Below, piece after piece: positions 13,242 to 42,799 of a DNA stretch of 43,664 nucleotides. The stretch's first letter is position 1; every line of letters begins with the position of its first letter. This stretch comes from Escherichia phage Fraca. Location of the stretch: sequence record LR597645; one strand, written 5' to 3'. The position numbers and the translations under genes are program-made. Under the pieces are notes generated by a model. That model did not search any database. It saw nothing but the letters and a program-made list of their open reading frames with translations, and was not told where the DNA came from.

Positions 13242-13952
13242 ATGCGTCAGAAAACCATTGATGCTATTATGGCGCATGCAGCCGCTGAACATCCACGTGA
13301 GTGCTGTGGTGTGGTGGCGCAGAAAAGCCGCGTTGAACGTTATTTTCCTTGCCGGAATCTTGCCGCGGCGCCGGAGGACAATTTTGTCCTTTGCCCCGAA
13401 GATTATGCATCTGCTGAGGACTGGGGTACGGTGATCGCCATCGTTCACAGCCACCCTGACGCCACTACGCAGCCGAGCGAACTGGATAAAGCGCAATGCG
13501 ACGCAACGCTTTTACCCTGGCATATCGTGAGCTGGCCGGAGGGGGATTTACGCACCATCCAGCCGCGCGGAGAGCTGCCGTTGCTGGAGCGTCCTTTTGT
13601 GCTTGGTCACTTTGACTGCTGGGGGCTGGTAATGAGCTATTTCCGGCAAACTCATGGTATCGAACTCCACGATTACCGGGTTGATTATCCCTGGTGGGAA
13701 AACGACTACCCGGACAACTTCTATCAGGATTGCTGGTACGAATGCGGATTCCGTGAATTCGACGGGCCGCCGAAACCTGGCGATATGGTGATCATGCAGG
13801 TGCAGGCTGATAAGTGGAACCACGCGGGTATATTGCTGGAGGGCAATATGCTGCTGCACCACCTGTACGGTCACCTGAGTCAGCGAGTACCATATGGCGG
13901 TTACTGGCAGGAACGAACGATGAAGATTCTCCGTTACAAATCTCTGTGCTAA
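13242..13952 (+). CDS. K: Tail assembly protein K (JAB/MPN plus NlpC/P60-like)
   Basis: 236 aa; HSHP metal-binding motif and Cys-containing C-terminal half, as in lambda gpK. Confidence 0.8.
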   Translation: MRQKTIDAIMAHAAAEHPRECCGVVAQKSRVERYFPCRNLAAAPEDNFVLCPEDYASAEDWGTVIAIVHSHPDATTQPSELDKAQCDATLLPWHIVSWPEGDLRTIQPRGELPLLERPFVLGHFDCWGLVMSYFRQTHGIELHDYRVDYPWWENDYPDNFYQDCWYECGFREFDGPPKPGDMVIMQVQADKWNHAGILLEGNMLLHHLYGHLSQRVPYGGYWQERTMKILRYKSLC

Positions 13953-13984: not shown

Positions 13985-14332
13985 ATGAGGAAATTTCTTT
14001 CGATATTAGCGTGTAGCCTGATTATTGTTGGTTGCACACCTTCTGAAAAGGATTTTATTGACATGGGGGAGTCCTTGGTCAAAGACACCCTTAAAGATCC
14101 GGACAGTGCCAAGTTTGAATCATTTTTCCGTGATTTTGGTGAAAATTCTGGATATGTTTGCGGTTATGTGAATGCTAAAAATTCATACGGCGCATACACG
14201 GGTAAAAAACCATATTATGTGCGGATTGAGGTCAAAGATGGAAAGGTCAATAATCATGGACCAATCATCATTATTAATGACCAAGACCAGAAGAAAATTG
14301 ATTCCTATGAGTCAATCTGTCAAAGGGACTGA
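13985..14332 (+). CDS. Lipoprotein (moron in the tail module)
   Basis: ATG at 13985 with GGGG RBS; signal peptide MRKFLSILACSLIIVGC with lipobox; AT-rich relative to neighbours. Confidence 0.65.
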   Translation: MRKFLSILACSLIIVGCTPSEKDFIDMGESLVKDTLKDPDSAKFESFFRDFGENSGYVCGYVNAKNSYGAYTGKKPYYVRIEVKDGKVNNHGPIIIINDQDQKKIDSYESICQRD

Positions 14333-14338
14333 TATGCC

Positions 14339-14674
14339 ATGAAAAAGATTATCCTCCCAATTTTTATCTTCCTGCTGATGGGATGTTCTGTTTCTTCACT
14401 AGAAGAACAAAAACCTATCCTATCAGAGCATTCAACAAAAACTGTTGATGAGGTTAATCGTTGCCTTTCTCCTAAATGGGTGGAGCTACGATCTTCAAGC
14501 TCAAGCATACCCACTGAATCAGGATACAAAATCACAGCATCAGACGATATATTCGGTGCTCTTTCGGTGGTGAATATCGATAAATCAGCGACAGGCGGAA
14601 GCGATATAAAGGTTTATGCCGTCGCGAAAGGATGGAACGACCACTGGGCTACGGCCGCCAGATCATGTCTTTGA
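14339..14674 (+). CDS. Lipoprotein (second moron in the tail module)
   Basis: 111 aa; signal peptide MKKIILPIFIFLLMGC with lipobox; AT-rich. Confidence 0.65.
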   Translation: MKKIILPIFIFLLMGCSVSSLEEQKPILSEHSTKTVDEVNRCLSPKWVELRSSSSSIPTESGYKITASDDIFGALSVVNIDKSATGGSDIKVYAVAKGWNDHWATAARSCL

Positions 14675-14723: not shown

Positions 14724-15329
14724 ATGAAAATGTCAGAGGTTATGACCAGAATTGAGCTCGGCGGTGTTTTGGGTAAAACCTACGGGAAGGTTCACCATCG
14801 TCTAATAAGAACAACCGCAGAAGCGATAAACTCACTTACAAAAACAATAGACGGGCTGGAGAAATTTTTGATAACCAGCAAAGCAAGGGGCCTGACCTAC
14901 GCCGTCTTTAAAGATAAAAAAAATATCGGAAAAGATGATTTTGGTTTTCCGGTAACAGGTGAAGTTATTCGAATTGTCCCTGTAGTGATCGGAAGTAAAA
15001 AAGCTGGAGTTTTACAGACAATTCTTGGAGCTGTTCTTGTCGTTGCGGGGATTGCAGTTGGAATGCTTTCTGGTGGAACACTATCTGCTGTTGGTTACGG
15101 AGCCGCGAAGTTTGGTGCAGCTATGATCGCTGGTGGAGTTGTTCAGATGCTATCGCCTCAACCCGGGGGCCTGGCCAGCAAACAAAGCGCAGATAACCGT
15201 GCATCGTATGCGTTCGGCGGGGTGACAAATACCGCCGCACAGGGTTACCCGGTTCCGCTCCTTTACGGCCGCCGGCGAATCGGCGGGGCAATTATTTCCG
15301 CCGGAATTTATGTCGAAGATCAGCAGTAG
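14724..15329 (+). CDS. I: Tail assembly protein I (lambda gpI-like)
   Basis: 201 aa with a Gly/Ala-rich hydrophobic C-terminal half, as in gpI; position between K and J. Confidence 0.8.
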   Translation: MKMSEVMTRIELGGVLGKTYGKVHHRLIRTTAEAINSLTKTIDGLEKFLITSKARGLTYAVFKDKKNIGKDDFGFPVTGEVIRIVPVVIGSKKAGVLQTILGAVLVVAGIAVGMLSGGTLSAVGYGAAKFGAAMIAGGVVQMLSPQPGGLASKQSADNRASYAFGGVTNTAAQGYPVPLLYGRRRIGGAIISAGIYVEDQQ

Positions 15330-15382: not shown

Positions 15383-18300
15383 ATGGCTAAAACAATTACC
15401 GGACGAAAAGGGGGGAGCTCCAGTTCCCGAACTCCTACCGAACAGCCTGATGATCTGCAATCTGTAGCGAAGGCAAAGATCCTCGTTGCGCTTGGGGAAG
15501 GGGAGTTTGCTGGACAGCTCACCGGGAAGGATATCTACCTGGACGGAACGGCGCTGGAGAACGCCGACGGCTCCCAAAACTTCAGCGGCGTTACGTGGGA
15601 ATTCCGCGCGGGTACACAGGCCCAGAAGTACATTCAGGGCATTCCCGGTACCGAAAACGAAATCAGCGTGGGCACCGAGGTAACGAGCGCTACAGCGTGG
15701 ACACGAACCTTCACCAATACACAGCTTTCAGCGGTTCGTTTACGCCTGAAATGGCCTTCGCTTTTCAAGCAGGAGGACGATGGCGATCTGGTTGGTTACT
15801 CGGTTAATTATGCGATTGACTTGCAGACGGACGGCGGGACATGGCAGACAGTCCTCAATACCAGTGTGACCGGGAAAACGACCTCAGGTTATGAGCGTAG
15901 CCACCGTATTGATTTACCTCAGGCGGGCAGCACCTGGACAATCAGACTACGCAAAATTACCGCTGACGCCAACAGCGCGAAAATCGGCGACACGATGACG
16001 CTACAGAGCTTCACTGAGGTGATTGATGCGAAATTGCGATATCCGAACACCGCGCTGCTGTACATTGAATTCGACTCCAGCCAGTTTAATGGTTCTATAC
16101 CTCAGATCTCCTGTGAGCCTCGTGGCCGCGTTATTCGGGTTCCTGATACTTACGACCCGGAAACTCGATCTTACAGCGGGACATGGACCGGGGCGTTTAA
16201 GTGGGCATGGACGGATAACCCTGCGTGGATTTTTTACGATCTGGTTGTTTCTGACCGGTTCGGCCTCGGTCACCGTTTGACTGCTGCTAACATCGATAAA
16301 TGGACGCTTTATCAGGTCGCCCAGTATTGCGATCAGATGGTACCGGACGGTAAGGGTGGCGATGGAACAGAACCACGCTATACCTGCAACGTGTACATTC
16401 AGGACCGGAACGACGCTTACACAGTCCTGCGTGATTTTGCTGCTATTTTCCGTGGCATGACGTACTGGGGTGGCGATCAGATCGTTGCTCTGGCCGATAT
16501 GCCCCGTGATGTGGATTACAGCTACACGCGCGCTAATGTTGTTGGCGGTCGCTTCACCTATTCAAGCAGCACCACGAAAACCCGCTACACTACAGCGCTG
16601 GTTTCATGGTCCGATCCCGGTAACGCCTATGCTGACGCGATGGAACCCGTATTTGAGCAGGCTCTGGTGGCGCGGTACGGCTTCAATCAGCTGGAAATGA
16701 CAGCCATCGGCTGTACCAGGCAGTCAGAAGCGAACCGAAAGGGGCGCTGGGGTATTCTCACCAACAACAAGGATCGCGTTGTTTCGTTTGATGTCGGGCT
16801 GGACGGAAACATACCGCAGCCTGGCTATATCATCGCTGTGGCAGACGAGCTGCTTTCCGGAAAGGTTATGGGCGGACGCATCAGCGCCGTTAATGGTCGC
16901 GTTATCAAACTTGACCGTGTAGCTGATGCGGCAGCAGGTGATCGCCTTATCCTCAACCTTCCCTCCGGAGCGTCACAGAGCAGGACCATTCAGGCGGTTA
17001 ACGGGGAATCGGTCACAGTCACCACCGCGTACAGTGAGACGCCTCAGGTCGAAGCTGTCTGGGTGGTTGAGTCAAACGAACTCTACGCGCAGCAGTATCG
17101 TGTTGTGAGTGTCGCTGATAACGATGATGGCACTTTCACCATTACCGGTGCATGGCACGATCCGGATAAATATGCCCGAATCGATACCGGAGCCATCATT
17201 GACCAGCGGCCGGTGAGCGTGATCCCGCCGGGCAACCAGTCGCCGCCTGCGAACATCGTGATCAGCTCGTTTTCTGTGGTGCAGCAAAATATCAGCGTCG
17301 AAACGATGCGGGTGAGCTGGGACCAGGCGCAGAACGCTATCGCCTATGAAGCTCAATGGCGCCGCAACGACGGGAACTGGGTTAACGTGCCGCGCAGCTC
17401 CACCACGTCATTCGACGTTCCGGGGATTTATGCCGGGCGCTACCTGGTGCGCGTGCGCGCAATCAACGCCGCTGAAATTTCTTCCGGATGGGGGTATTCA
17501 GAAGAGAAAACGCTGACGGGTAAAGTGGGCAATCCACCGAAGCCGGTGGGTTTCATCGCGTCTGAAAACGTGGTTTTCGGTATCGAGCTGAACTGGGGAT
17601 TCCCGGCGAATACCGACGACACGCTGAAGACGGAAATTCAGTACAGCCTTACCGGTACCGAAGACGATGCGATGCTGCTGGCCGATGTGCCTTACCCGCA
17701 GCGCAAATATCAGCAGATGGGACTTAAGGCTGGGCAGATTTTCTGGTACCGCGCGCAGCTGGTGGACCGTAGCGGCAACGAATCAGGTTATACCGAATGG
17801 GTGCGAGGACAGGCCAGCATCGATGTTTCCGACATCACAGACGTGATCCTGGAGGAAATTAAGGACTCCGATACGTTCAAAGACCTGATCGAGAACGCGG
17901 TGGACAGCAACGAAAAAATTGCTGGCATGGCTGACGAAATCAAAAACCATGCTGACGAACTCGAGCAGCAGGCGAAAGACATCCAGGAGAACGCTGACGG
18001 GCTGGCTCAGGCCGAAGTGAAGATAGACGAGATCTCTGTGTCGATGGACGGCATGACGGGAGGTGTGAAGAACTCGGCAATTGCGATAATCCAGGCCAAT
18101 CTCGCTCAGGTGGCCACGCGTAAAACGCTGTCGGCATCGGTAGCCGGTAACAGCGCGCAGCTGGACCGCATTGATGAGGTGATCGTCACTGACAGGGAGG
18201 CAACGGCACGCGCATTGCTGAGCCTGCAGACGAACGTCAACGGCAATACGGCATCCATCAACAGTCTGAGCCAGACGGTTTCGAATTACCAGCAGACCAC

Positions 18301-18829
18301 GGCGACGCAGATAAACGCCATCACTGCGACCATAAACGGAAATACGGCGGCGATAACAACGAACGCCCAGGCAATTGCGAACGTAAACGGCCAACTCAGC
18401 GCGATGTACAACATCAAAGTTGCGGTAACGAGTAATGGCCAGTATTACGCCGCAGGCATGGGGATCGGGGTGGAGAATACGCCATCAGGGATGCAGTCGC
18501 AGGTAATCTTCCTGGCCGACCGTTTTGCCGTCACTACGGCAGCAGGAAACAGCGTGGCGTTGCCATTTGTGATCCAGAATGGTCAGACGTTCATCAGGGC
18601 CAGCTTCATTCAGGACGGTACCATTGAGAACGCCAAAATCGGTAACTATATCCAGTCGAATAACTATGTGGCTGGCTCGGCAGGCTGGAAACTTGATAAA
18701 GGCGGCACCTGGGAAAACTACGGCAGCGACGGTCAGGGAGCAAGAAAATCCACCAATGTCACTGACAGTATCAGGGATTCAAATGGCGTGCTCCGCGTGC
18801 AAATCGGCAAACTTACAGGGGTGTTTTGA
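15383..18829 (+). CDS. J: Host specificity / tip attachment protein J (central tail fibre)
   Basis: 1148 aa ORF in the lambda J position; fibronectin-like middle region and C-terminal receptor-binding region. Confidence 0.9.
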   Translation: MAKTITGRKGGSSSSRTPTEQPDDLQSVAKAKILVALGEGEFAGQLTGKDIYLDGTALENADGSQNFSGVTWEFRAGTQAQKYIQGIPGTENEISVGTEVTSATAWTRTFTNTQLSAVRLRLKWPSLFKQEDDGDLVGYSVNYAIDLQTDGGTWQTVLNTSVTGKTTSGYERSHRIDLPQAGSTWTIRLRKITADANSAKIGDTMTLQSFTEVIDAKLRYPNTALLYIEFDSSQFNGSIPQISCEPRGRVIRVPDTYDPETRSYSGTWTGAFKWAWTDNPAWIFYDLVVSDRFGLGHRLTAANIDKWTLYQVAQYCDQMVPDGKGGDGTEPRYTCNVYIQDRNDAYTVLRDFAAIFRGMTYWGGDQIVALADMPRDVDYSYTRANVVGGRFTYSSSTTKTRYTTALVSWSDPGNAYADAMEPVFEQALVARYGFNQLEMTAIGCTRQSEANRKGRWGILTNNKDRVVSFDVGLDGNIPQPGYIIAVADELLSGKVMGGRISAVNGRVIKLDRVADAAAGDRLILNLPSGASQSRTIQAVNGESVTVTTAYSETPQVEAVWVVESNELYAQQYRVVSVADNDDGTFTITGAWHDPDKYARIDTGAIIDQRPVSVIPPGNQSPPANIVISSFSVVQQNISVETMRVSWDQAQNAIAYEAQWRRNDGNWVNVPRSSTTSFDVPGIYAGRYLVRVRAINAAEISSGWGYSEEKTLTGKVGNPPKPVGFIASENVVFGIELNWGFPANTDDTLKTEIQYSLTGTEDDAMLLADVPYPQRKYQQMGLKAGQIFWYRAQLVDRSGNESGYTEWVRGQASIDVSDITDVILEEIKDSDTFKDLIENAVDSNEKIAGMADEIKNHADELEQQAKDIQENADGLAQAEVKIDEISVSMDGMTGGVKNSAIAIIQANLAQVATRKTLSASVAGNSAQLDRIDEVIVTDREATARALLSLQTNVNGNTASINSLSQTVSNYQQTTATQINAITATINGNTAAITTNAQAIANVNGQLSAMYNIKVAVTSNGQYYAAGMGIGVENTPSGMQSQVIFLADRFAVTTAAGNSVALPFVIQNGQTFIRASFIQDGTIENAKIGNYIQSNNYVAGSAGWKLDKGGTWENYGSDGQGARKSTNVTDSIRDSNGVLRVQIGKLTGVF

Positions 18830-19131
18830 TGTCATGGGGTATACAAACATGGGATGCGTCGGGTAAACCCAACAACTACGGTATCAAGCCAGTTTCAGTT
18901 GTTGGGCGTATACAGCTGGCTGCCGGACAAAACTCCGGCAACTGGTCTTTCGCGGTGCCCTCAGGAATGAAGGTCGGCTTTGTGCTCACACTTGATGAAG
19001 GAGGAAGCAGCGTAGGGAGGCGCATTGTCGCGTCAGGGAACACAATAACTGTAACTGCTGCCTCTTCTGTAGGCCTGGGAAATTACCCGGCCTCTAAGTG
19101 TGAGGTGATCGTTTTCATGGAGAAAGCATAG
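18829..19131 (+). CDS. Hypothetical protein downstream of J
   Basis: ATG at 18829 overlaps J stop; contains a WDASGK motif shared with the next gene. Confidence 0.55.
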   Translation: MSWGIQTWDASGKPNNYGIKPVSVVGRIQLAAGQNSGNWSFAVPSGMKVGFVLTLDEGGSSVGRRIVASGNTITVTAASSVGLGNYPASKCEVIVFMEKA

Positions 19132-19805
19132 TGTCTGACTTTGGCGCAATGATATTAATGGAGAACGGCAATCCCTTTGTTACACCACAATCAACGCCTT
19201 TCTGCCTCTACGGAAAATACTCCTTCAATTCCTCAGCTAATGGCAGCTCTCAGCAGGTGGCGCAATATCTTTCGGTTCCTGACGATTATCCGGTAATGGT
19301 CTTCATAAAAACGACTAATACTGCGCAGCCGACTCCGGCCATGTCATATCGGATAGGAGGAAATGTCTATATTAGTGGCGTAAATCCCTATAACCAGGGC
19401 TTTACGCTGACAGCATATGTATTTGCAATTTTTCCGCAAACACTTCCCGCGTGGGGATTTGCTATCTGGGATGCCTCCGGGAAGCTTGTTCTGACGAACG
19501 AATCAAGGGTGCTTTCTGATCTTCAAACAGTGGGCACGCCAGGTGCAAGCGGCGGGATTAATATTGACCAGACGCTGAGCGGGTCATGGGCTGTTGCGCC
19601 TGCACAGCTTGGGCAGACCATCGTTGTGAATAACTCCACCCAGCCTCCGACCATCTACACCATCAATGCTTATTCGGCTTGCAGGTTTGACGGGACTAAT
19701 ACGAGGATAAATGCAGGGGGAACCTCCACCGGAACAGGTTCTCCGGGAGGTGGAACGAATACTGGCATTTCCTTGACCGCGATAAATACAGCGGCCTATG
19801 ACTGA
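19131..19805 (+). CDS. Hypothetical tail-associated protein, paralogous to the preceding gene
   Basis: 224 aa; GTG start overlapping upstream stop with GGAGAAAG RBS; WDASGK motif; Gly/Thr-rich C-terminus. Confidence 0.55.
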   Translation: MSDFGAMILMENGNPFVTPQSTPFCLYGKYSFNSSANGSSQQVAQYLSVPDDYPVMVFIKTTNTAQPTPAMSYRIGGNVYISGVNPYNQGFTLTAYVFAIFPQTLPAWGFAIWDASGKLVLTNESRVLSDLQTVGTPGASGGINIDQTLSGSWAVAPAQLGQTIVVNNSTQPPTIYTINAYSACRFDGTNTRINAGGTSTGTGSPGGGTNTGISLTAINTAAYD

Positions 19806-19916
19806 TTGATCGTTTTGAGCGATCAATAACAAATAATTGATCTATCTAATCAATTATACCCGTTTCTTTCATGTTGGTATTGTCTAAGTTCATGAATACC
19901 TCTGGATACCATCAAT

Positions 19917-20150
19917 ATGATTAAGCTACTTATCTGCATGGCTGGCGCTGTCATGCTTTCAGGCTGCGCTGGAGTAATTGAGAAACAGGAACCAATTTGC
20001 AGCGGAACGGCCATCGTTGGCGGTCAGGAAAATACCGTCCAGATTTACGGTGTTCGTAAACAAAATAACCAGACGCAGTACCGAGCCGGTGATCCCTTTA
20101 ACTGGCGCTGGGTAGGTGCAAATACATTCACTGGCACTACCTGTAAATAA
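19917..20150 (+). CDS. Small lipoprotein
   Basis: 77 aa; signal peptide MIKLLICMAGAVMLSGC with lipobox; preceded by an AT-rich palindromic region. Confidence 0.6.
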   Translation: MIKLLICMAGAVMLSGCAGVIEKQEPICSGTAIVGGQENTVQIYGVRKQNNQTQYRAGDPFNWRWVGANTFTGTTCK

Positions 20151-20208
20151 CCCACCTCATTCGAATACAACTTCGCTCCGGCGGGGTTTTTTGTTGCCTG
20201 GAGAAAAT

Positions 20209-21528
20209 ATGCTTTATAACACTGGCACCATTGCTATCAACGGAAATACCGCCACCGGGACGGGTACAAACTGGACGGCACCCGCCAGCCAGGTTCGCGC
20301 TGGCCAGACGATTATCGTCATGTCGAGCCCGGTACAAATTTTCCAGATCTCAAGCGTGGACAGTTCCACCTCAATGACGGTTACACCTGCCGCCGCTCCG
20401 GCACTTAGTGGCCAGAAGTATGGAATCCTGGTGTCCGACAATATCTCTGTCGACGGACTGGCACAGGCCATGTCGCAACTCATCAAAGAGTATGACGAGA
20501 ATATTGGCGCGTGGGAGACGTTCGCCACAACCTCAGCCAATCAGAGCATCACTGTAACCATCAACGGCACCTCCGTAACCATCCCTGGCATCGGTAAGCT
20601 GGCACAGAAAGGGAGCAACGGCGCGCTAGCTGTCGAAGACGGCGGAACCGGGGCAACCACGGCAGAAGGCAGTCGCACAAACCTCGGTTTGGGAAACAGC
20701 GCCACCAGGAGTGTTGGGACGGTAACTGGTACCGTAGCTGCTGGCGATGATTCTCGCATCACTGGTGCCCTTCAAAAAACTGGCGGGACACTAACAGGTC
20801 AGCTGAATTTGAAAAGCGCGCCAATCGCTGCCGATGCTAACTCTGTTATTTCTGCCAACGGTGGGCTTGATGTTGATCTTTCTAAGGGGTTCGTTTTAAA
20901 AGGAAAGGTGCAGAAGGGGGCAGGTAGGGACAATAATATACTTACAATCTCGGGTGATGGAGATACGCCAACAACAGGATATGTAGGCGCGTTTCAGTAT
21001 AACTGGTATGCCGATGGCTGGATTGCAGGTATCACGCGTGGATCAGGAACAAACACAATTGCGTATTCGATTTACTATAACGGTGCATCATATGGCACTG
21101 GGTCAAAGTTTTGGAGCTTTAATTATGATGGCTCAGCCACTTCTCAGGGCGCCTGGGTTAATGGTTCTGACGAGCGCCACAAGTCGAATATTGAGGCTGT
21201 AGCCAAGCCTCTTCCCGCAGTACTCGCTATGCGTGGCGTGACTTACGATATTAAGGATGGCGGACGAGGCGTTGGCCTTATAGCCCAGGATGTTGAAAAG
21301 TGGTGTCCGGATGCTGTCAAATCATATGGAGACCGCAAGTTTAGCGACGGTGCGGTGATTGAGAATTTTAAATTTCTTGATACATCAGGCGTGGCTGCCG
21401 CCTACCATACTGAAGCAATCAAAGAACTCTTCAATCTGGTGGAACTGGCGCTTAACGATCCGGACAAGGCTCGTGATATTATTAAAGCGGTGAAAGCTGC
21501 CTCAGAGCTTAGCCAGTCAGGTTCGTGA
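20209..21528 (+). CDS. Tail fibre protein with C-terminal intramolecular chaperone (peptidase S74-like) domain
   Basis: ATG at 20209 with GGAGAAAA RBS; C-terminal SDERHKSNI motif characteristic of self-cleaving chaperone domains; the track start at 20116 lies inside a terminator-like region. Confidence 0.75.
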   Translation: MLYNTGTIAINGNTATGTGTNWTAPASQVRAGQTIIVMSSPVQIFQISSVDSSTSMTVTPAAAPALSGQKYGILVSDNISVDGLAQAMSQLIKEYDENIGAWETFATTSANQSITVTINGTSVTIPGIGKLAQKGSNGALAVEDGGTGATTAEGSRTNLGLGNSATRSVGTVTGTVAAGDDSRITGALQKTGGTLTGQLNLKSAPIAADANSVISANGGLDVDLSKGFVLKGKVQKGAGRDNNILTISGDGDTPTTGYVGAFQYNWYADGWIAGITRGSGTNTIAYSIYYNGASYGTGSKFWSFNYDGSATSQGAWVNGSDERHKSNIEAVAKPLPAVLAMRGVTYDIKDGGRGVGLIAQDVEKWCPDAVKSYGDRKFSDGAVIENFKFLDTSGVAAAYHTEAIKELFNLVELALNDPDKARDIIKAVKAASELSQSGS

Positions 21529-21646: not shown

Positions 21647-21913
21647 TTAAAGCCCAACCTGGCGAACTGTCGGGAACTCAGAAACAAGCCACATATCTGC
21701 TTCTTCAAACATTTCCTCCAGCATGCGGTTCAGTTTTTCCCGATCGCTTTTGCTGGCATCGCTATTTAAGGCGTTTGCCTGCATCGGCTTCACCTTCACT
21801 TCGGCATCAGGGAAAATCTGGTGCACCCGCTTCGTCAGCTCGGCCAGTATGATCTCTCTGGCCCCTTCGAGCCCCTCAACATTACGCTTGTCATAAATCA
21901 GTTCTACGAACAT
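21647..21913 (-). CDS. dinI: DinI-like protein
   Basis: About 88 aa from ATG at 21913; C-terminal EEMFEEADMWLVSEF resembles the DinI signature ETWESADDWFVSE. Confidence 0.7.
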   Translation of the reverse strand: MFVELIYDKRNVEGLEGAREIILAELTKRVHQIFPDAEVKVKPMQANALNSDASKSDREKLNRMLEEMFEEADMWLVSEFPTVRQVGL

Positions 21914-21989
21914 ACGTGCTCCGCTAACTACTGTTTTAATATACAGTATTTTTGCTTTGGCAGTTTTGTCTGTCAAGGCATCAACCATT

Positions 21990-22267: not shown

Positions 22268-23560
22268 CTACTGCGCTACTACCATGCTTTGGGGCAGTGA
22301 TGGGGCAGCGTGTGAAAGCGCCTGGTTGAGCAGAGCAACCTGCTCTCCACTCTTCTCTGACATCCACTTTCCATACACCTTGTAAACCATCTGTGCATCG
22401 GTATGTCCCATCTGAGTTGCTATAAAGTTCGGGTTAGCACCAGCCGATAATGACCAGCACGCATAGGTATGCCGTGACTGATAAGCGTTGCGGTAACGAA
22501 TACCGGCGCGCTTGATTATCGGAGCCCAAATTTTATTAATCGAATTAACCGCGTAGTGATATCCTGTGCGAGACCCACGTTTGACGCATTGAGGGCTGAA
22601 AACGAAAGTGCATGGATGTATGACTGACTGGCCATATTCCCGCAAATTCACTTCAACCTCATGCTGCCGGCCAAGGCGCGTCAGTTGGGCCTGATCCCTA
22701 AGGGCATCAATAGCTGGTTGTATGAGATAAATCACCCTGTCAGTGCCTGCCTCGGTTTTTGGCAGGGTGAACTCATACGTTTGGGTAAGGTTACGCTTAA
22801 CCGTAATGGTTCCCGCGGTGAGATCGATGTCTTCCCATGCAAGACCACATAATTCCCCATGCCTCATTCCGGTATAAACGGCGACGGTCCAGAGATTTCG
22901 CATCTGCTGGTGGCCGCATGCCTGAATGAACCTGATGAACTCGTCTGTAGTGAGTGGATCTGGTTCGTCTTTTGCCTTCCTGAGACGGTTAATTCCGCTA
23001 AACGGGTTTTCCTTTGCGTAGCCGTTATCAGCTCCAAACTGGAAGATCTCGGCCATCAGCATCATGTAATTATTCACCGTGGAAGACTTCCGGCCTTTTA
23101 CCTGTGTCCGGTGATCCTTCTTCATTACATGGAAGCCCGTCAGCAACTCCTTCCTTACATACAGCAAATCTTCAGTGGTAACCGCAGAAACCATTTTATT
23201 TTCGCCGATGCGCGGAAGCATGTTTTTTATGATGGATTCGTACCTACTCATGGTATTAGAGCTGATCTCCATTCTCTTCAGCTCTGACCATCTTTCGGTA
23301 AGCTCCAGCACAGTAATTTCCTTTCTATCCTGACCGAACCGGGCAAGGTTCGGTGAGTTTGGGAATTTTTCTGCATAGTTAAAATTCCCCATTCTTATCG
23401 CAAAACAAACCGAAGAACGCAGCTCGCCAGCTATCTTGCGATTTTTTGCAGTGTCAGGGACACCTAGGTTTTCCCTGACACGTTTACCTTTATACAGAAA
23501 CCAGATGCGGAGCGAACCGCCGTGGTTTTCGACGCCTGTCGGGTATGATGCATTAGCCAT
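22268..23560 (-). CDS. int: Tyrosine integrase
   Basis: ATG at 23560 with AGGAGGG RBS; C-terminal catalytic region with R...HxxR...Y (RHTYACWSL...MVYKVYGKW). Confidence 0.85.
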   Translation of the reverse strand: MANASYPTGVENHGGSLRIWFLYKGKRVRENLGVPDTAKNRKIAGELRSSVCFAIRMGNFNYAEKFPNSPNLARFGQDRKEITVLELTERWSELKRMEISSNTMSRYESIIKNMLPRIGENKMVSAVTTEDLLYVRKELLTGFHVMKKDHRTQVKGRKSSTVNNYMMLMAEIFQFGADNGYAKENPFSGINRLRKAKDEPDPLTTDEFIRFIQACGHQQMRNLWTVAVYTGMRHGELCGLAWEDIDLTAGTITVKRNLTQTYEFTLPKTEAGTDRVIYLIQPAIDALRDQAQLTRLGRQHEVEVNLREYGQSVIHPCTFVFSPQCVKRGSRTGYHYAVNSINKIWAPIIKRAGIRYRNAYQSRHTYACWSLSAGANPNFIATQMGHTDAQMVYKVYGKWMSEKSGEQVALLNQALSHAAPSLPQSMVVAQ

Positions 23561-23604
23561 TGATCCCTCCTGACGTCCAGGAGCGTGGACGAGTGTACTG
23601 CTTT

Positions 23605-23862
23605 TCATGCTGTCTTCGCACCTGGTTGATTTTTTTTCTGCGCCTCGATCCACAGATCAACGGCTTTCCTGTTGTACATGCATTCGCTCGAAGGCTTGGG
23701 ATTACCATCTGGTGAAATGTGCAGGTACTCGCGGCCCAGCATCCAGGATTCTTTTCTGGCGCGGGTGATGGTTCCGGGCTTGAGCCCGGTAACCGCAATC
23801 AGAACCTTTTCGCTAACCCAGTCATTCGGCACCAGAAGAACGATTTCAGCACTGGTTTGCAT
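23605..23862 (-). CDS. xis: Excisionase-like protein
   Basis: About 85 aa from ATG at 23862 with GGAGGA RBS; basic small protein immediately upstream of int. Confidence 0.6.
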   Translation of the reverse strand: MQTSAEIVLLVPNDWVSEKVLIAVTGLKPGTITRARKESWMLGREYLHISPDGNPKPSSECMYNRKAVDLWIEAQKKNQPGAKTA

Positions 23863-25008: not shown

Positions 25009-25836
25009 TCACTTAACCTGGATAAATGGAGTATTGGCGCCGCTGGTCATGTACTGGGGCAGAGTGCCGTTCCATTTGTTGATGGCCTCCAGTTGAAGCA
25101 CTTCAGGGTTTTCGCGCATGGCCTGCCCACGAATCTGGATAGACTTCGCTTCCGCTTCCGCCAGCTTCAACTTTGCGTCTGCCTGGCCATCTGCTTCAGC
25201 GCGCAGCATGTTTGCTTCGGCTTCACGCTGTTTCACTTCTTGCTCGCGCTGCAGGGTCTTCTGGTTGGCGGTGACTTTGGCGTTGATGCTGTCGATAACA
25301 GTCGGCGGGTACTCCGGACGGCCGACGTAAGAAAGGCTGATAACCTGGATTCCTACCGGACCCATGTCGGACTGAATCTCTTTCAGAGCATTTTCAAGCA
25401 GTTCAGCTTTCCCGCCGTCAATGAACTTATCGGTGCTCATGCGGCTTGCGAGACGATTAAGGGCATCGGCAATCTTTTGGCGCAAATCGGTGTCGGTGAT
25501 GTCGTCCACGCCTTTCCGATAGGTCTGAAACACCGTCGTCACTTTGGTCGGATCAACTTTATAGGCGACGCCGATGTGATAGCCGATGGTTGTGCCGTCA
25601 CTCATCTGGAAGTTGAAAGCGTCGTCGTAGGTTTTCATCTGTTTGAAGGTCGGGAAGATGTAAACCTCTGTGTTCCAGCCAGTCCAATAGCGGCCAACGC
25701 CTACCACTTCGCCAACGCCTTTATCGTCACCCAGCTTGTTGACCTTAATCCCAACGTTGCCAGGCTCAACACGATCACAACCAACGAGACCGACGGCAGA
25801 AAGCGCGATAATTGAAGCCATAATTGCTTTTTTCAT
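25009..25836 (-). CDS. SPFH (band 7 / prohibitin-like) domain lipoprotein
   Basis: 275 aa; signal peptide with lipobox LVGC; SPFH-like core and C-terminal Ala/Glu-rich coiled coil; start overlaps upstream stop (ATGA). Confidence 0.7.
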   Translation of the reverse strand: MKKAIMASIIALSAVGLVGCDRVEPGNVGIKVNKLGDDKGVGEVVGVGRYWTGWNTEVYIFPTFKQMKTYDDAFNFQMSDGTTIGYHIGVAYKVDPTKVTTVFQTYRKGVDDITDTDLRQKIADALNRLASRMSTDKFIDGGKAELLENALKEIQSDMGPVGIQVISLSYVGRPEYPPTVIDSINAKVTANQKTLQREQEVKQREAEANMLRAEADGQADAKLKLAEAEAKSIQIRGQAMRENPEVLQLEAINKWNGTLPQYMTSGANTPFIQVK

Positions 25837-41477: not shown

Positions 41478-42791
41478 TTGCTCAACCTACCAAATGTTGT
41501 GATTACCGGCAGGGATGAGGATGAGGAGAGTTACCTCATCCATGCCGAATCAGAAGCCACAGTCAGGTTGTGCCCTGGCTGTGGCTCTTTCAATTCCGTG
41601 GTGATCGGGAGCCGTAATCAGCCGTTCGTAGACACGCAGATGCATGCCAAGACGGTGCGGATCCTATTCACCCGCAAGCGCCTTAAGTGCAAGGACTGCG
41701 GAAAGACCTACTTTGAGCTGCTTGAGTGGCTACATGAGGACTTCCGCATGCCAACCCGCACCGTTGACTACATCATCAAGCGAGCGGCCAGAGTGCCGTT
41801 CCTGAGCGTAGCCAGCGAGCTGGGCGTTGATGAGAAGACCGTGCGCAACGTGTTCGCCAACTATGTGGAGTTCATCGAGAGCAAACACGACTGGCAGGCT
41901 CCGAGGGTACTCGGGATCGATGAAACACATTTCAGCCAAAAGATGCATCTAGTCCTGACGGATATCGAGCGAAAGACCCTGCTCGACCTCCGGCGAGACC
42001 GCTCTCAAGAGGCAGCCAAAAGCGCCATCGTTCGCCTTCGTGGATGGGCGGGCATTGAGATTGTCTGCATGGATATGTGGCGACCGTACAGGAACGCAGT
42101 GCGTGACATCCTGCCCAATGCAGTGGTTGTCATCGACAGGTTCCACGTTGCCAGGATGGCGAACGAGGCAATGGAGGCGGCCCGCAAGGGCCTGCGAGCA
42201 TCACTATCGAAGAAGGAGCGGATCAGGTTGAAGGATGACCGCAAGATACTGCTCAAGCGCCGAGACAACATCACCGGACTGAATGAGCTCGCCAGCTTCC
42301 ATTTCTGGACTGAGGAATATCCAGAGCTGATGTCTGTCTATAACGCCAAAGAGGCGTTCCTAGACCTGTGGCTCATGCCTACCAGGGACGATGCAATGGA
42401 GTATTGGGAGAACTGGCTGCGTATCACTGACAGCGAAACCAAGAAGCATTTCTCCCAGGCGGTCACGGCAATGAGGAACTGGCATGAGGAGATCTTCAAC
42501 TGGTGGGACTTCCGGTACACGAACGCGCTGACTGAAAGCCTGAACAACCTGATCAAGGCAGCTTTCAGATCTGGTCGTGGTTACAGTTTTGAGGTGCTCA
42601 GGGCCAAGCTGTTGTTCACGAAAGGGGGTCTTGAGACCACCGCAGAATCTCTCAACAAGCCGAGACCAGAACCCACTGAGATGATCCTGATCGAGGAGCC
42701 TGAGCTGTTTCTCCATGGCACCAGAATTGACATGCCAGTGCTTGCTTTTGATCTGGTTGCGGATCATACAGATACACACAACCAGAGTTGA
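41478..42791 (+). mobile_element. ISL3-family transposase gene (IS element or remnant; element ends not identified)
   Basis: 437 aa; N-terminal zinc ribbon CPGCGS...CKDCGK; DDE region with GIDETHF and VVVIDRFHV; TTG or GTG start. Confidence 0.7.
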
Positions 42792-42799
42792 TCTGATAA

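Follow-up and report, generated by a model that had tools for sequence, protein, structure and literature searches.

We analysed the genome of Escherichia phage Fraca (sequence record LR597645), focusing on the phage exclusion gene cor and on two GATC-bearing palindromes in the spacer immediately upstream of it. The whole stretch of 43,664 nucleotides is called the window here, and all coordinates refer to it unless another record is named. It reads as a lambdoid genome whose modules follow one another in virion order, from terminase, portal and head through tail, J and tail fibre to integrase, early genes and lysis.

The cor transcription unit

The open reading frame at 19917..20150 on the + strand encodes a phage exclusion lipoprotein precursor of 77 amino acids, which matches the NCBIfam family NF047972, "phage exclusion lipoprotein Cor", over residues 1-76 of 77 (137 bits, where the cutoff is 31; E=1.6e-40) and the PHROG 1119 profile with E=6.8e-34. 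The lipoprotein features claimed for it in the original prediction were found: the signal peptide MIKLLICMAGAVMLSGC (19917-19964) is followed by the lipobox LSGC and by Cys17 (19965-19967), and the precursor reads MIKLLICMAGAVMLSG/CAGV..., with the lipobox and the +1 cysteine read directly. The protein is 88% identical to Cor of phi80 (9 of the 77 residues differ), 81% identical to that of HK022 and 61% to that of N15. Residues C17, C28, C76, A57, G58, W63 and W65 are invariant in nine diverse Cor proteins, and both the cysteine pair and the AG-PFNW-W motif are present. We regard it as practically certain that this open reading frame is cor, a member of the FhuA-blocking exclusion lipoprotein family.

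In HK022, N15 and phi80, Cor shields lysogens from FhuA-dependent phages and lowers ferrichrome uptake (PMC3594210). Models give Cor and T5 Llp the same fold, and it is the periplasmic side of FhuA to which Llp binds (bioRxiv 10.64898/2026.03.26.714494; PMC13164509). Llp (FhuA:Llp complex, PDB 8A60) resembles Cor in being a small lipoprotein of the outer membrane that acts periplasmically to inactivate FhuA; unlike Cor, it is encoded by an early gene of a lytic phage and not by a prophage moron. A search of the PDB sequences with Cor gave nothing significant, and Llp is not detectable by sequence. In Fraca lysogens, signal peptidase II would cut the Cor precursor before Cys17 to give a mature lipoprotein of 61 amino acids. 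By homology to the Cor proteins of phi80, N15, HK022 and T1, and by the fold of T5 Llp, the mature protein would be expected in the inner leaflet of the outer membrane, inactivating FhuA periplasmically; the lysogens would then exclude FhuA-dependent phages and pay with ferrichrome uptake.

The cor unit ends in an intrinsic terminator at 20169..20195 (+ strand; 8-bp stem, 4-nt loop, T6), so that the terminator-like sequence reported earlier behind the lipoprotein gene is indeed a hairpin with a T run, and it aligns with the annotated terminators of phi80, mEp213 and mEp390. In the phi80 record (FN582354) the cor unit carries a -35, a -10, a start site and a terminator at aligned positions, and cor appears there as a "moron gene" whose product "blocks TonB-dependent outer membrane FhuA receptor"; the HK022 record has "moron gene product; phage exclusion". 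The earlier suggestion of a moron thus agrees with the annotation of the homologous gene in both records. The 431-bp cor unit, spacer included, has 87% DNA identity to phi80, and the gene order J-gp22-gp23-cor-stf is common to phi80, HK022, mEp390, LAU1, N15 and Midgardsormr38. The counterparts of cor in other phages include gene 24 of N15, gene 27 of HK022 and cor of mEp167. Accordingly, cor is a classical moron and lysogenic-conversion gene, and both the gene and its moron status were already known. The cor moron occupies 19806-20195; it is inserted as a separate transcription unit, with a predicted promoter, behind the tail-tip cassette and ahead of the side tail fibre gene. The original prediction had the class of gene right, but it did not name the gene and did not recognise the palindromes as conserved, GATC-bearing dyads of a presumed protein-binding type.

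Palindromes and GATC array upstream of cor

The spacer between the gp23-like gene (19131..19805, + strand) and cor comprises 111 bp (19806-19916) and is AT-rich, as had been noted (31% GC over 19800-19899, against about 52% in the flanks). Palindrome 1 (19805..19827) reads ATTGATCG (19805-19812)-TTTTGAG-CGATCAAT (19820-19827), with 8 of 8 arm positions complementary and a 7-nt gap; the TGA stop codon of the gp23-like gene (19803-19805) touches it. Palindrome 2 (19833..19857) reads ATAATTGAT (19833-19841)-CTATCTA-ATCAATTAT (19849-19857), with 9 of 9 complementary positions and again a 7-nt gap. The first inverted repeat is exactly as originally described; the right arm of the second reads AATCAATTA and not GATCAATTA, and the two repeats stand side by side rather than nested.

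Each palindrome contains a predicted half-site for the regulator OxyR, and the starts of the two half-sites are 31 bp apart. Half-site 1 (19809-19823), ATCGTTTTGAGCGAT, forms the core of palindrome 1 and matches ATAGnTnnnAnCTAT at 8 of 10 positions. Half-site 2 (19840-19854), ATCTATCTAATCAAT, lies inside palindrome 2 and has 7 of 10 consensus matches. Three GATC sites, starting at 19808, 19821 and 19839, form an array at 19808..19842 with spacings of 13 and 18. The first two (GATC1, 19808-19811, and GATC2, 19821-19824, 13 bp apart) belong to palindrome 1, and GATC3 overlaps the upstream arm of palindrome 2. Palindrome 1 is the sole exact occurrence of ATCGNTNNNANCGAT in the window, its GATC pair is the only one spaced by 13 bp in the 43.6 kb, and the pattern GATC-N9-GATC-N14-GATC occurs once against 0.00 expected. 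Clusters of three GATC sites within 40 bp occur twice in the window. The other one (42750-42793, spacings of 12 and 28) adjoins an AT-rich TTGATTTGATTGATATTTAATCAATG stretch and is without an OxyR-type layout; it was considered as a similar operator (42750-42790) and rejected, as both its spacing and its context differ.

Palindrome 1 shares its arms, 16 specified bases in all, with the OxyR(A) site of P22 gtr, which reads ATTGATCG-GTAACAA-CGATCAAT; the OxyR(C) site of gtr reads ATTGATCG-CTTGTAT-CGATCAAA. In electrophoretic mobility shift assays OxyR binds the gtr half-sites only when their GATC pairs are unmethylated, and OxyR blocks the methylation of these pairs, which leads to phase variation (PMC2909390). 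The gtr pairs are located at -110/-97 and -46/-33, each with its two GATC sites 13 bp apart (PMC2909390). Thus gtr resembles cor both in this 13-bp pair and in being a prophage-borne surface-modifying or exclusion function. The two differ in that gtr has three half-sites and four GATC sites, with half-sites 32 bp apart, whereas cor has one pair of half-sites, 31 bp apart, and three GATC sites.

The arrangement of a half-site with one GATC, a distance of 31-32 bp and a half-site with two GATC sites is shared by cor, Mu mom and agn43 (flu, in the E. coli prophage CP4-44). The mom operator consists of ATAGAAAACGACGAT and ATCGGTAATACAGAT, 31 bp start to start, with GATC spacings of 18 and 13, and agn43 of ATAGAATAAAACGAT and ATCGTTTATATCGAT, 32 bp apart, with three GATC sites spaced by 19 and 13. 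Read on the opposite strand, cor has ATTGATTAGATAGAT, 31 bp and ATCGCTCAAAACGAT, and is therefore the mirror image of both; agn43 has GATCGTTTATATCGATCGATAA where cor has GATCGTTTTGAGCGATCAATAA. Of the ten consensus positions, the half-sites match 7+8 in cor, 7+7 in mom and 8+8 in agn43. Like cor, mom is phage-borne and has one OxyR tetramer site, with two GATC sites in one half-site and the third on the inner arm of the other. Unlike cor, it is in mirror orientation to its promoter, with half-site centres at about -92 and -61 by our reading of its -10. The gene is controlled by Dam and OxyR (PMC2909390; Bolker and Kahmann 1989, as cited elsewhere), although heritable ON and OFF lineages are not known even for mom (PMC2909390). 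A single OxyR site is likewise described for agn43 (PMC2909390).

We compared 37 loci selected by the Cor protein only. The exact 13+18 GATC array is found 100-109 nt 5' of the ATG in 21 of the 37, and the loci that keep it include those of Citrobacter, Kluyvera, Phytobacter and Siccibacter, with Cor identities of 49-56%; phi80 retains all three GATC sites with the same spacing. In four of the other 16 loci (SSU5, Stx2-86 and two Kluyvera loci) the spacer is lacking and cor directly follows the preceding gene. Among the divergent cor loci the invariant columns include T6 in half-site 1 and A10, C12, A14 and T15 in half-site 2. The segment between half-site 2 and the -10 has a mean identity of 56%. 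These invariant columns, which the selection of loci did not impose, are specified positions of the OxyR consensus to which the predicted half-sites were matched. Distant loci have CTAT as the right arm of palindrome 2, which is nearer to the OxyR consensus and breaks the hairpin.

Three naturally altered operators were also observed. HK022 (locus L003, 1222-1334) has a 4-nt deletion in half-site 1 and TATC in place of GATC3, N15 (locus L006, 887-1003) keeps only one GATC, and in the IMG/VR cor locus L045 (around 7230) half-site 2 and the -35 are deleted, with half-site 1 fused to the -10. These look like naturally "locked" operator variants. All relatives of the Fraca locus are in Enterobacterales, an order whose members are known to carry dam and oxyR.

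A possible third register of the half-site was noticed at 19831-19845 (AAATAATTGATCTAT, 7 of 10 matches), starting 22 bp after half-site 1. Both a 22-bp spacing (oxidised OxyR) and a 31-bp spacing (reduced OxyR) are thereby available, and this dual spacing hints at a redox-dependent repositioning of OxyR.

Promoter position and competing explanations

A weak -35-like hexamer, TATACC (19855..19860, + strand), immediately follows half-site 2 and is 17 bp from an extended -10, TGgTATTGT (19875..19883, + strand), for which the alignment with phi80 shows an annotated -10 and start site and which places the predicted transcription start at about 19890-19891. In 19 divergent cor loci T79, A80 and T84 of the -10 are invariant and G77 is conserved in at least 90%. 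A strict sigma-70 scan of 19400-20600 called no promoter. The conserved extended -10 is the candidate for the promoter of an independently regulated moron, as the original prediction supposed; we read the scan result as a weak core promoter rather than an absent one, which fits an activator-dependent promoter.

When the -10 is taken as -12 to -7 from the predicted start, the half-sites of cor are centred at about -75 and -43, and GATC3 at about -49.5. In Salmonella opvAB the half-sites OBSC and OBSD have their centres at -75 and -43, and GATC4 is at -49.5 (PMC4856963). OBSD is a 7/10 half-site that overlaps GATC4 and directly precedes the -35; in the ON state OxyR is bound to it (PMC4856963). 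The two promoters are thus alike in the half-site positions, in the GATC at -49.5 and in a proximal half-site just upstream of the -35. A difference is that opvAB has four half-sites and four GATC sites, and that in opvAB, as in gtr, OxyR shifts between alternative pairs; cor has one pair, and its ON and OFF states would therefore be bound and unbound, as at agn43.

On these grounds the palindromes are probably the two dyad half-sites of a single Dam-sensitive operator for an OxyR tetramer, adjoining a weak promoter. From the sequence we infer OxyR binding, its sensitivity to methylation, the start site, the sign of control and the bistability. Reduced OxyR would bind the operator only with all three GATC sites unmethylated and would shield them from Dam, and full methylation would exclude OxyR. 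After replication, Dam and OxyR would compete for the hemimethylated operator, giving two heritable states and a heterogeneous expression of cor. With OxyR as an activator, the unmethylated, bound operator would be ON and the methylated one low or OFF. This sign is somewhat favoured because half-site 2 at -43 and the GATC at about -49.5 are placed as in the activating OBSD, and because the core promoter is weak. The cor operator would then be a predicted OxyR/Dam switch in a new arrangement, with a single tetramer site, three GATC sites and an activator position. That cor actually undergoes phase variation is a tentative proposal, to which we give somewhat less than even weight. In the literature that we searched, nothing connected cor with OxyR, Dam, GATC sites or phase variation, although coverage was partial and an earlier description is possible.

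Several points weigh against this interpretation. OxyR binding at cor is proposed from similarity, and the host chromosome, with its dam and oxyR genes, lies outside the window. A scan with the generic half-site consensus, allowing up to two mismatches, gave 12 sites in the window against 10.7 expected, so that such sites are not rarer than by chance and the scan is uninformative as sole evidence; instead, it is the identity to proven sites, together with GATC placement, with spacing and with conservation, that carries the case. The spacing itself is 31 bp in cor and mom and 32 bp in gtr, agn43 and opvAB. The predicted start site rests on the conserved -10 and on an annotation of unknown basis, and the extended -10 could allow expression independent of OxyR. 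HK022 and N15, with documented Cor exclusion, carry degenerate operators, which means that the switch is dispensable for Cor function. Finally, the two known operators with exactly three GATC sites, mom and agn43, are repressed and not activated by OxyR.

Some of these points bear on the sign of control. The same Dam-sensitive OxyR operator could work in the opposite direction, with bound OxyR repressing the cor promoter, a fully methylated default state that is ON and a minority lineage that is OFF with FhuA open; we consider this less likely, but it is a serious alternative and the strongest one. It would be in line with mom and agn43, which have the same single-tetramer layout with three GATC sites, with an extended -10 that may make the promoter self-sufficient, and with the exclusion phenotype retained by HK022 and N15 after loss of the operator. 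Lysogenic conversion by phi80 also looks population-wide. In P22 gtr, OxyR(BC), with the proximal half-site at about -45 to -31, represses (PMC2909390). However, the positions -75/-43 and the GATC at -49.5 in cor fit the activating OBSD of opvAB and not the gtr C site (about -38), the core promoter fails a standard sigma-70 scan, and the 23-nt distance to the -10 is kept across 17 divergent families described below, which is more typical of a contact on one face of the helix than of steric blocking. Transcription of mom, which OxyR represses, also needs the Mu C activator. The OxyR site of agn43 lies downstream of the start site, where OxyR is a pure repressor; the direction of control may differ from that at cor.

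The dyads could also be bound by another protein without OxyR, such as HdfR or another LysR-type regulator, SeqA, or a nucleoid protein such as H-NS. A T-N11-A dyad is generic for LysR-type regulators, the region is AT-rich (31% GC), and SeqA has an ancillary role at opvAB (PMC4856963); binding of HdfR at the std operon is likewise blocked by GATC methylation (PMC6735912). We nevertheless judge this explanation improbable, since the arms match a proven OxyR site over 16 specified bases, the spacing and the GATC placement copy three other OxyR operators, the conserved T6, A10, C12, A14 and T15 are OxyR consensus positions, and an element that recurs in prophages of many genera, both lambdoid and P2-like, points to a ubiquitous host factor.

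Two more specific regulators were searched for in the region and rejected. A Fur box (GATAATGATAATCATTATC), considered because Cor targets an iron transporter, had no match with up to three mismatches. For FNR (TTGAT-N4-ATCAA) the arms hold TTGAT and ATCAA, but with spacings of N11 and N7, and there is no FNR-spaced site in the region.

Finally, we consider it very improbable that no regulatory protein is involved. The palindromes would then act as hairpins, RNA or DNA, that stabilise the 3' end of the late tail transcript, mark a processing site or terminate weakly behind gp23, or they would be a scar left by recombination when the moron was inserted. The two RNA folds are stable (-15.8 kcal/mol, z = -3.75; none of 200 shuffles folds as well), hairpin 1 begins at the gp23 stop codon, and an Erwinia phage has TTCGATCG-GAA-CGATCGAA at the same location. 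Yet the hairpins lack a U tract, the terminator scan calls neither, and there is no covariation (a score of 0.032, with 0.034 for shuffled sequences). Across the 19 cor loci the outer pairs break without compensation, and 10 of the loci have lost the pair at columns 39-53. In addition, the loop positions T6 and A10 are conserved, the number and spacing of the GATC sites are conserved although a hairpin does not need them, and the distance to the -10 is fixed in unrelated contexts. An Rfam search of 19600-20400 gave nothing at E<=1. The palindromes were rejected as an intrinsic terminator or structured RNA on the U tract, the terminator scan, the covariation and the Rfam search.

Cassette distribution, neighbouring genes and implications

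The predicted OxyR operator is not limited to cor. A scan of IMG/VR for palindrome 1 returned at least 120 loci, and the following counts refer to the matches listed. A third GATC is present at +31 (107 loci) or +32 (one locus) in 108 of 120, in a single orientation only. These 108 loci fall into 17 families with less than 60% identity in the 50 nt downstream. A good -10-like hexamer exactly 23 nt after half-site 2 was found in 10 of the 17 families, against 0-2 at other offsets, with a mean -10 score of 3.35 at that offset compared with about 1.7 elsewhere; the score for a TTGACA-like -35 peaks at offsets -1 and 0 after half-site 2. The element is present in lambdoid and P2-like prophages of many genera.

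The same cassette precedes genes unrelated to cor in the IMG/VR loci L082, L071, L080, L094, L153, L083, L047, L090 and L150. Downstream, these loci encode a Ner-like repressor (PHROG 769) and small unannotated membrane proteins of 39-47 and 61-100 amino acids, the latter beside tail fibre and sheath genes of P2-like prophages; a PHROG match is lacking for most of the non-cor genes. In BLAST searches of two non-cor module variants against isolated phages, one had no match and the other a single unannotated match, so that neither has an annotation in cultured phages. In L047, a divergent Cor-like lipoprotein of 80 amino acids (PHROG 1119, E=3.6e-12) is encoded on the minus strand at -391 to -149 relative to the module, with a membrane protein of 100 amino acids on the opposite side, and the operator there may serve divergent promoters. 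We treat the spread of the cassette to other morons as a lead.

In Fraca, the tail-tip protein J (15383-18829; Pfam FNIII-A_GpJ and Phage_Tail_Tip) is followed by the three genes of the cor cassette. The first, gp22-like (18826..19131, + strand; PHROG 557, E=2.6e-34), is in the position of phi80 gene 22 and HK022 gene 25; the second is the gp23-like gene (PHROG 425, E=4.5e-78), syntenic with phi80, N15 and HK022. The gp22-gp23-cor cassette has been described and tracks with FhuA use (PMC13164509), and the C-terminal 250 amino acids of J are 86% identical to those of HK022 J. Downstream of cor, the side tail fibre gene (20209..21528, + strand; PHROGs 1591 and 1980) has a Pfam Peptidase_S74 chaperone domain. 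Its ATG is at 20209. The lipoprotein gene does lie between J and the side tail fibre gene, just before the latter as originally described.

The same prediction had counted Cor as the third small lipoprotein of the tail module, and two further open reading frames with lipoboxes are indeed found there, adjacent to each other on the + strand at 13985-14332 and 14339-14674 (115 and 111 amino acids; lipoboxes IVGC and LMGC). They are flanked by K-like (13242-13952, NlpC/P60 and JAB) and I-like (14724-15329) tail assembly genes. A Pfam search gave no match for either, and the pair (13985-14674) looks like more morons in the tail operon.

An antisense open reading frame within the 5' end of the tail fibre gene (20214-20540, - strand) is 87% identical to "gp25" of phi80. 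The phi80 record counts gp25 as a further moron, the second one, and gives it a separate promoter and a terminator that overlaps in region with that of cor; in Fraca, the conservation of this frame may ride on that of the tail fibre N-terminus. Two genes on the - strand, 21647-21988 and 22268-23653, place a DinI-like gene (PF06183, E=1.8e-23) between the tail fibre gene and the integrase, and this DinI-like gene is likely another accessory gene expressed in lysogens. In the early region beyond the integrase, 25009-25836 (- strand) encodes a lipoprotein of 275 amino acids with an SPFH/Band 7 domain (Pfam PF01145, E=1.6e-31). A phage-encoded Dam was sought in the window, and no convincing open reading frame for a methylase with a DPPY motif was found.

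Regarding the host, the window reaches no more than about 83% identity in its top matches among 5,426 complete E. coli genomes, and the nearest Cor in species genomes is that of Enterobacter wuhouensis (88%); for both reasons the host is probably other than E. coli. The nearest relative among the fetched sequences is IMG/VR UViG 2576861513_000001, 97.1% identical over 3.3 kb.

Cor provides phage resistance that is bought by disabling an iron-siderophore transporter, a trade of cost against benefit, and cor has long been regarded as a lysogenic-conversion gene with constitutive expression. Should the operator not be one for OxyR, what remains is an ordinary cor moron that had already been annotated. 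The most far-reaching version of our proposal is that cor is under a heritable Dam/OxyR switch that splits lysogens into FhuA-blocked and FhuA-open cells, and that the switch is carried by a portable 75-bp cassette of operator and promoter driving many unrelated tail-fibre-adjacent morons of lambdoid and P2-like prophages across Enterobacterales; we put it forward as a conjecture that has a real chance of being correct but is held below even odds.

If it is true, one set of lysogen lineages would be FhuA-blocked, that is, resistant to phages, colicin M and albomycin but starved of ferrichrome, and the other FhuA-open. The methylation switch would be a form of bet-hedging, and OxyR/Dam phase variation would be extended from lipopolysaccharide and adhesin genes to receptor-blocking superinfection exclusion. 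It would also imply a hidden heterogeneity in phage susceptibility, with consequences for T1/phi80 contamination, for phage therapy and for sensitivity to albomycin or colicin M. The natural operator-loss variants of HK022, N15 and L045 are ready controls for experiments, and the regulation of the uncharacterised prophage morons that share this fixed-geometry cassette would become directly testable.

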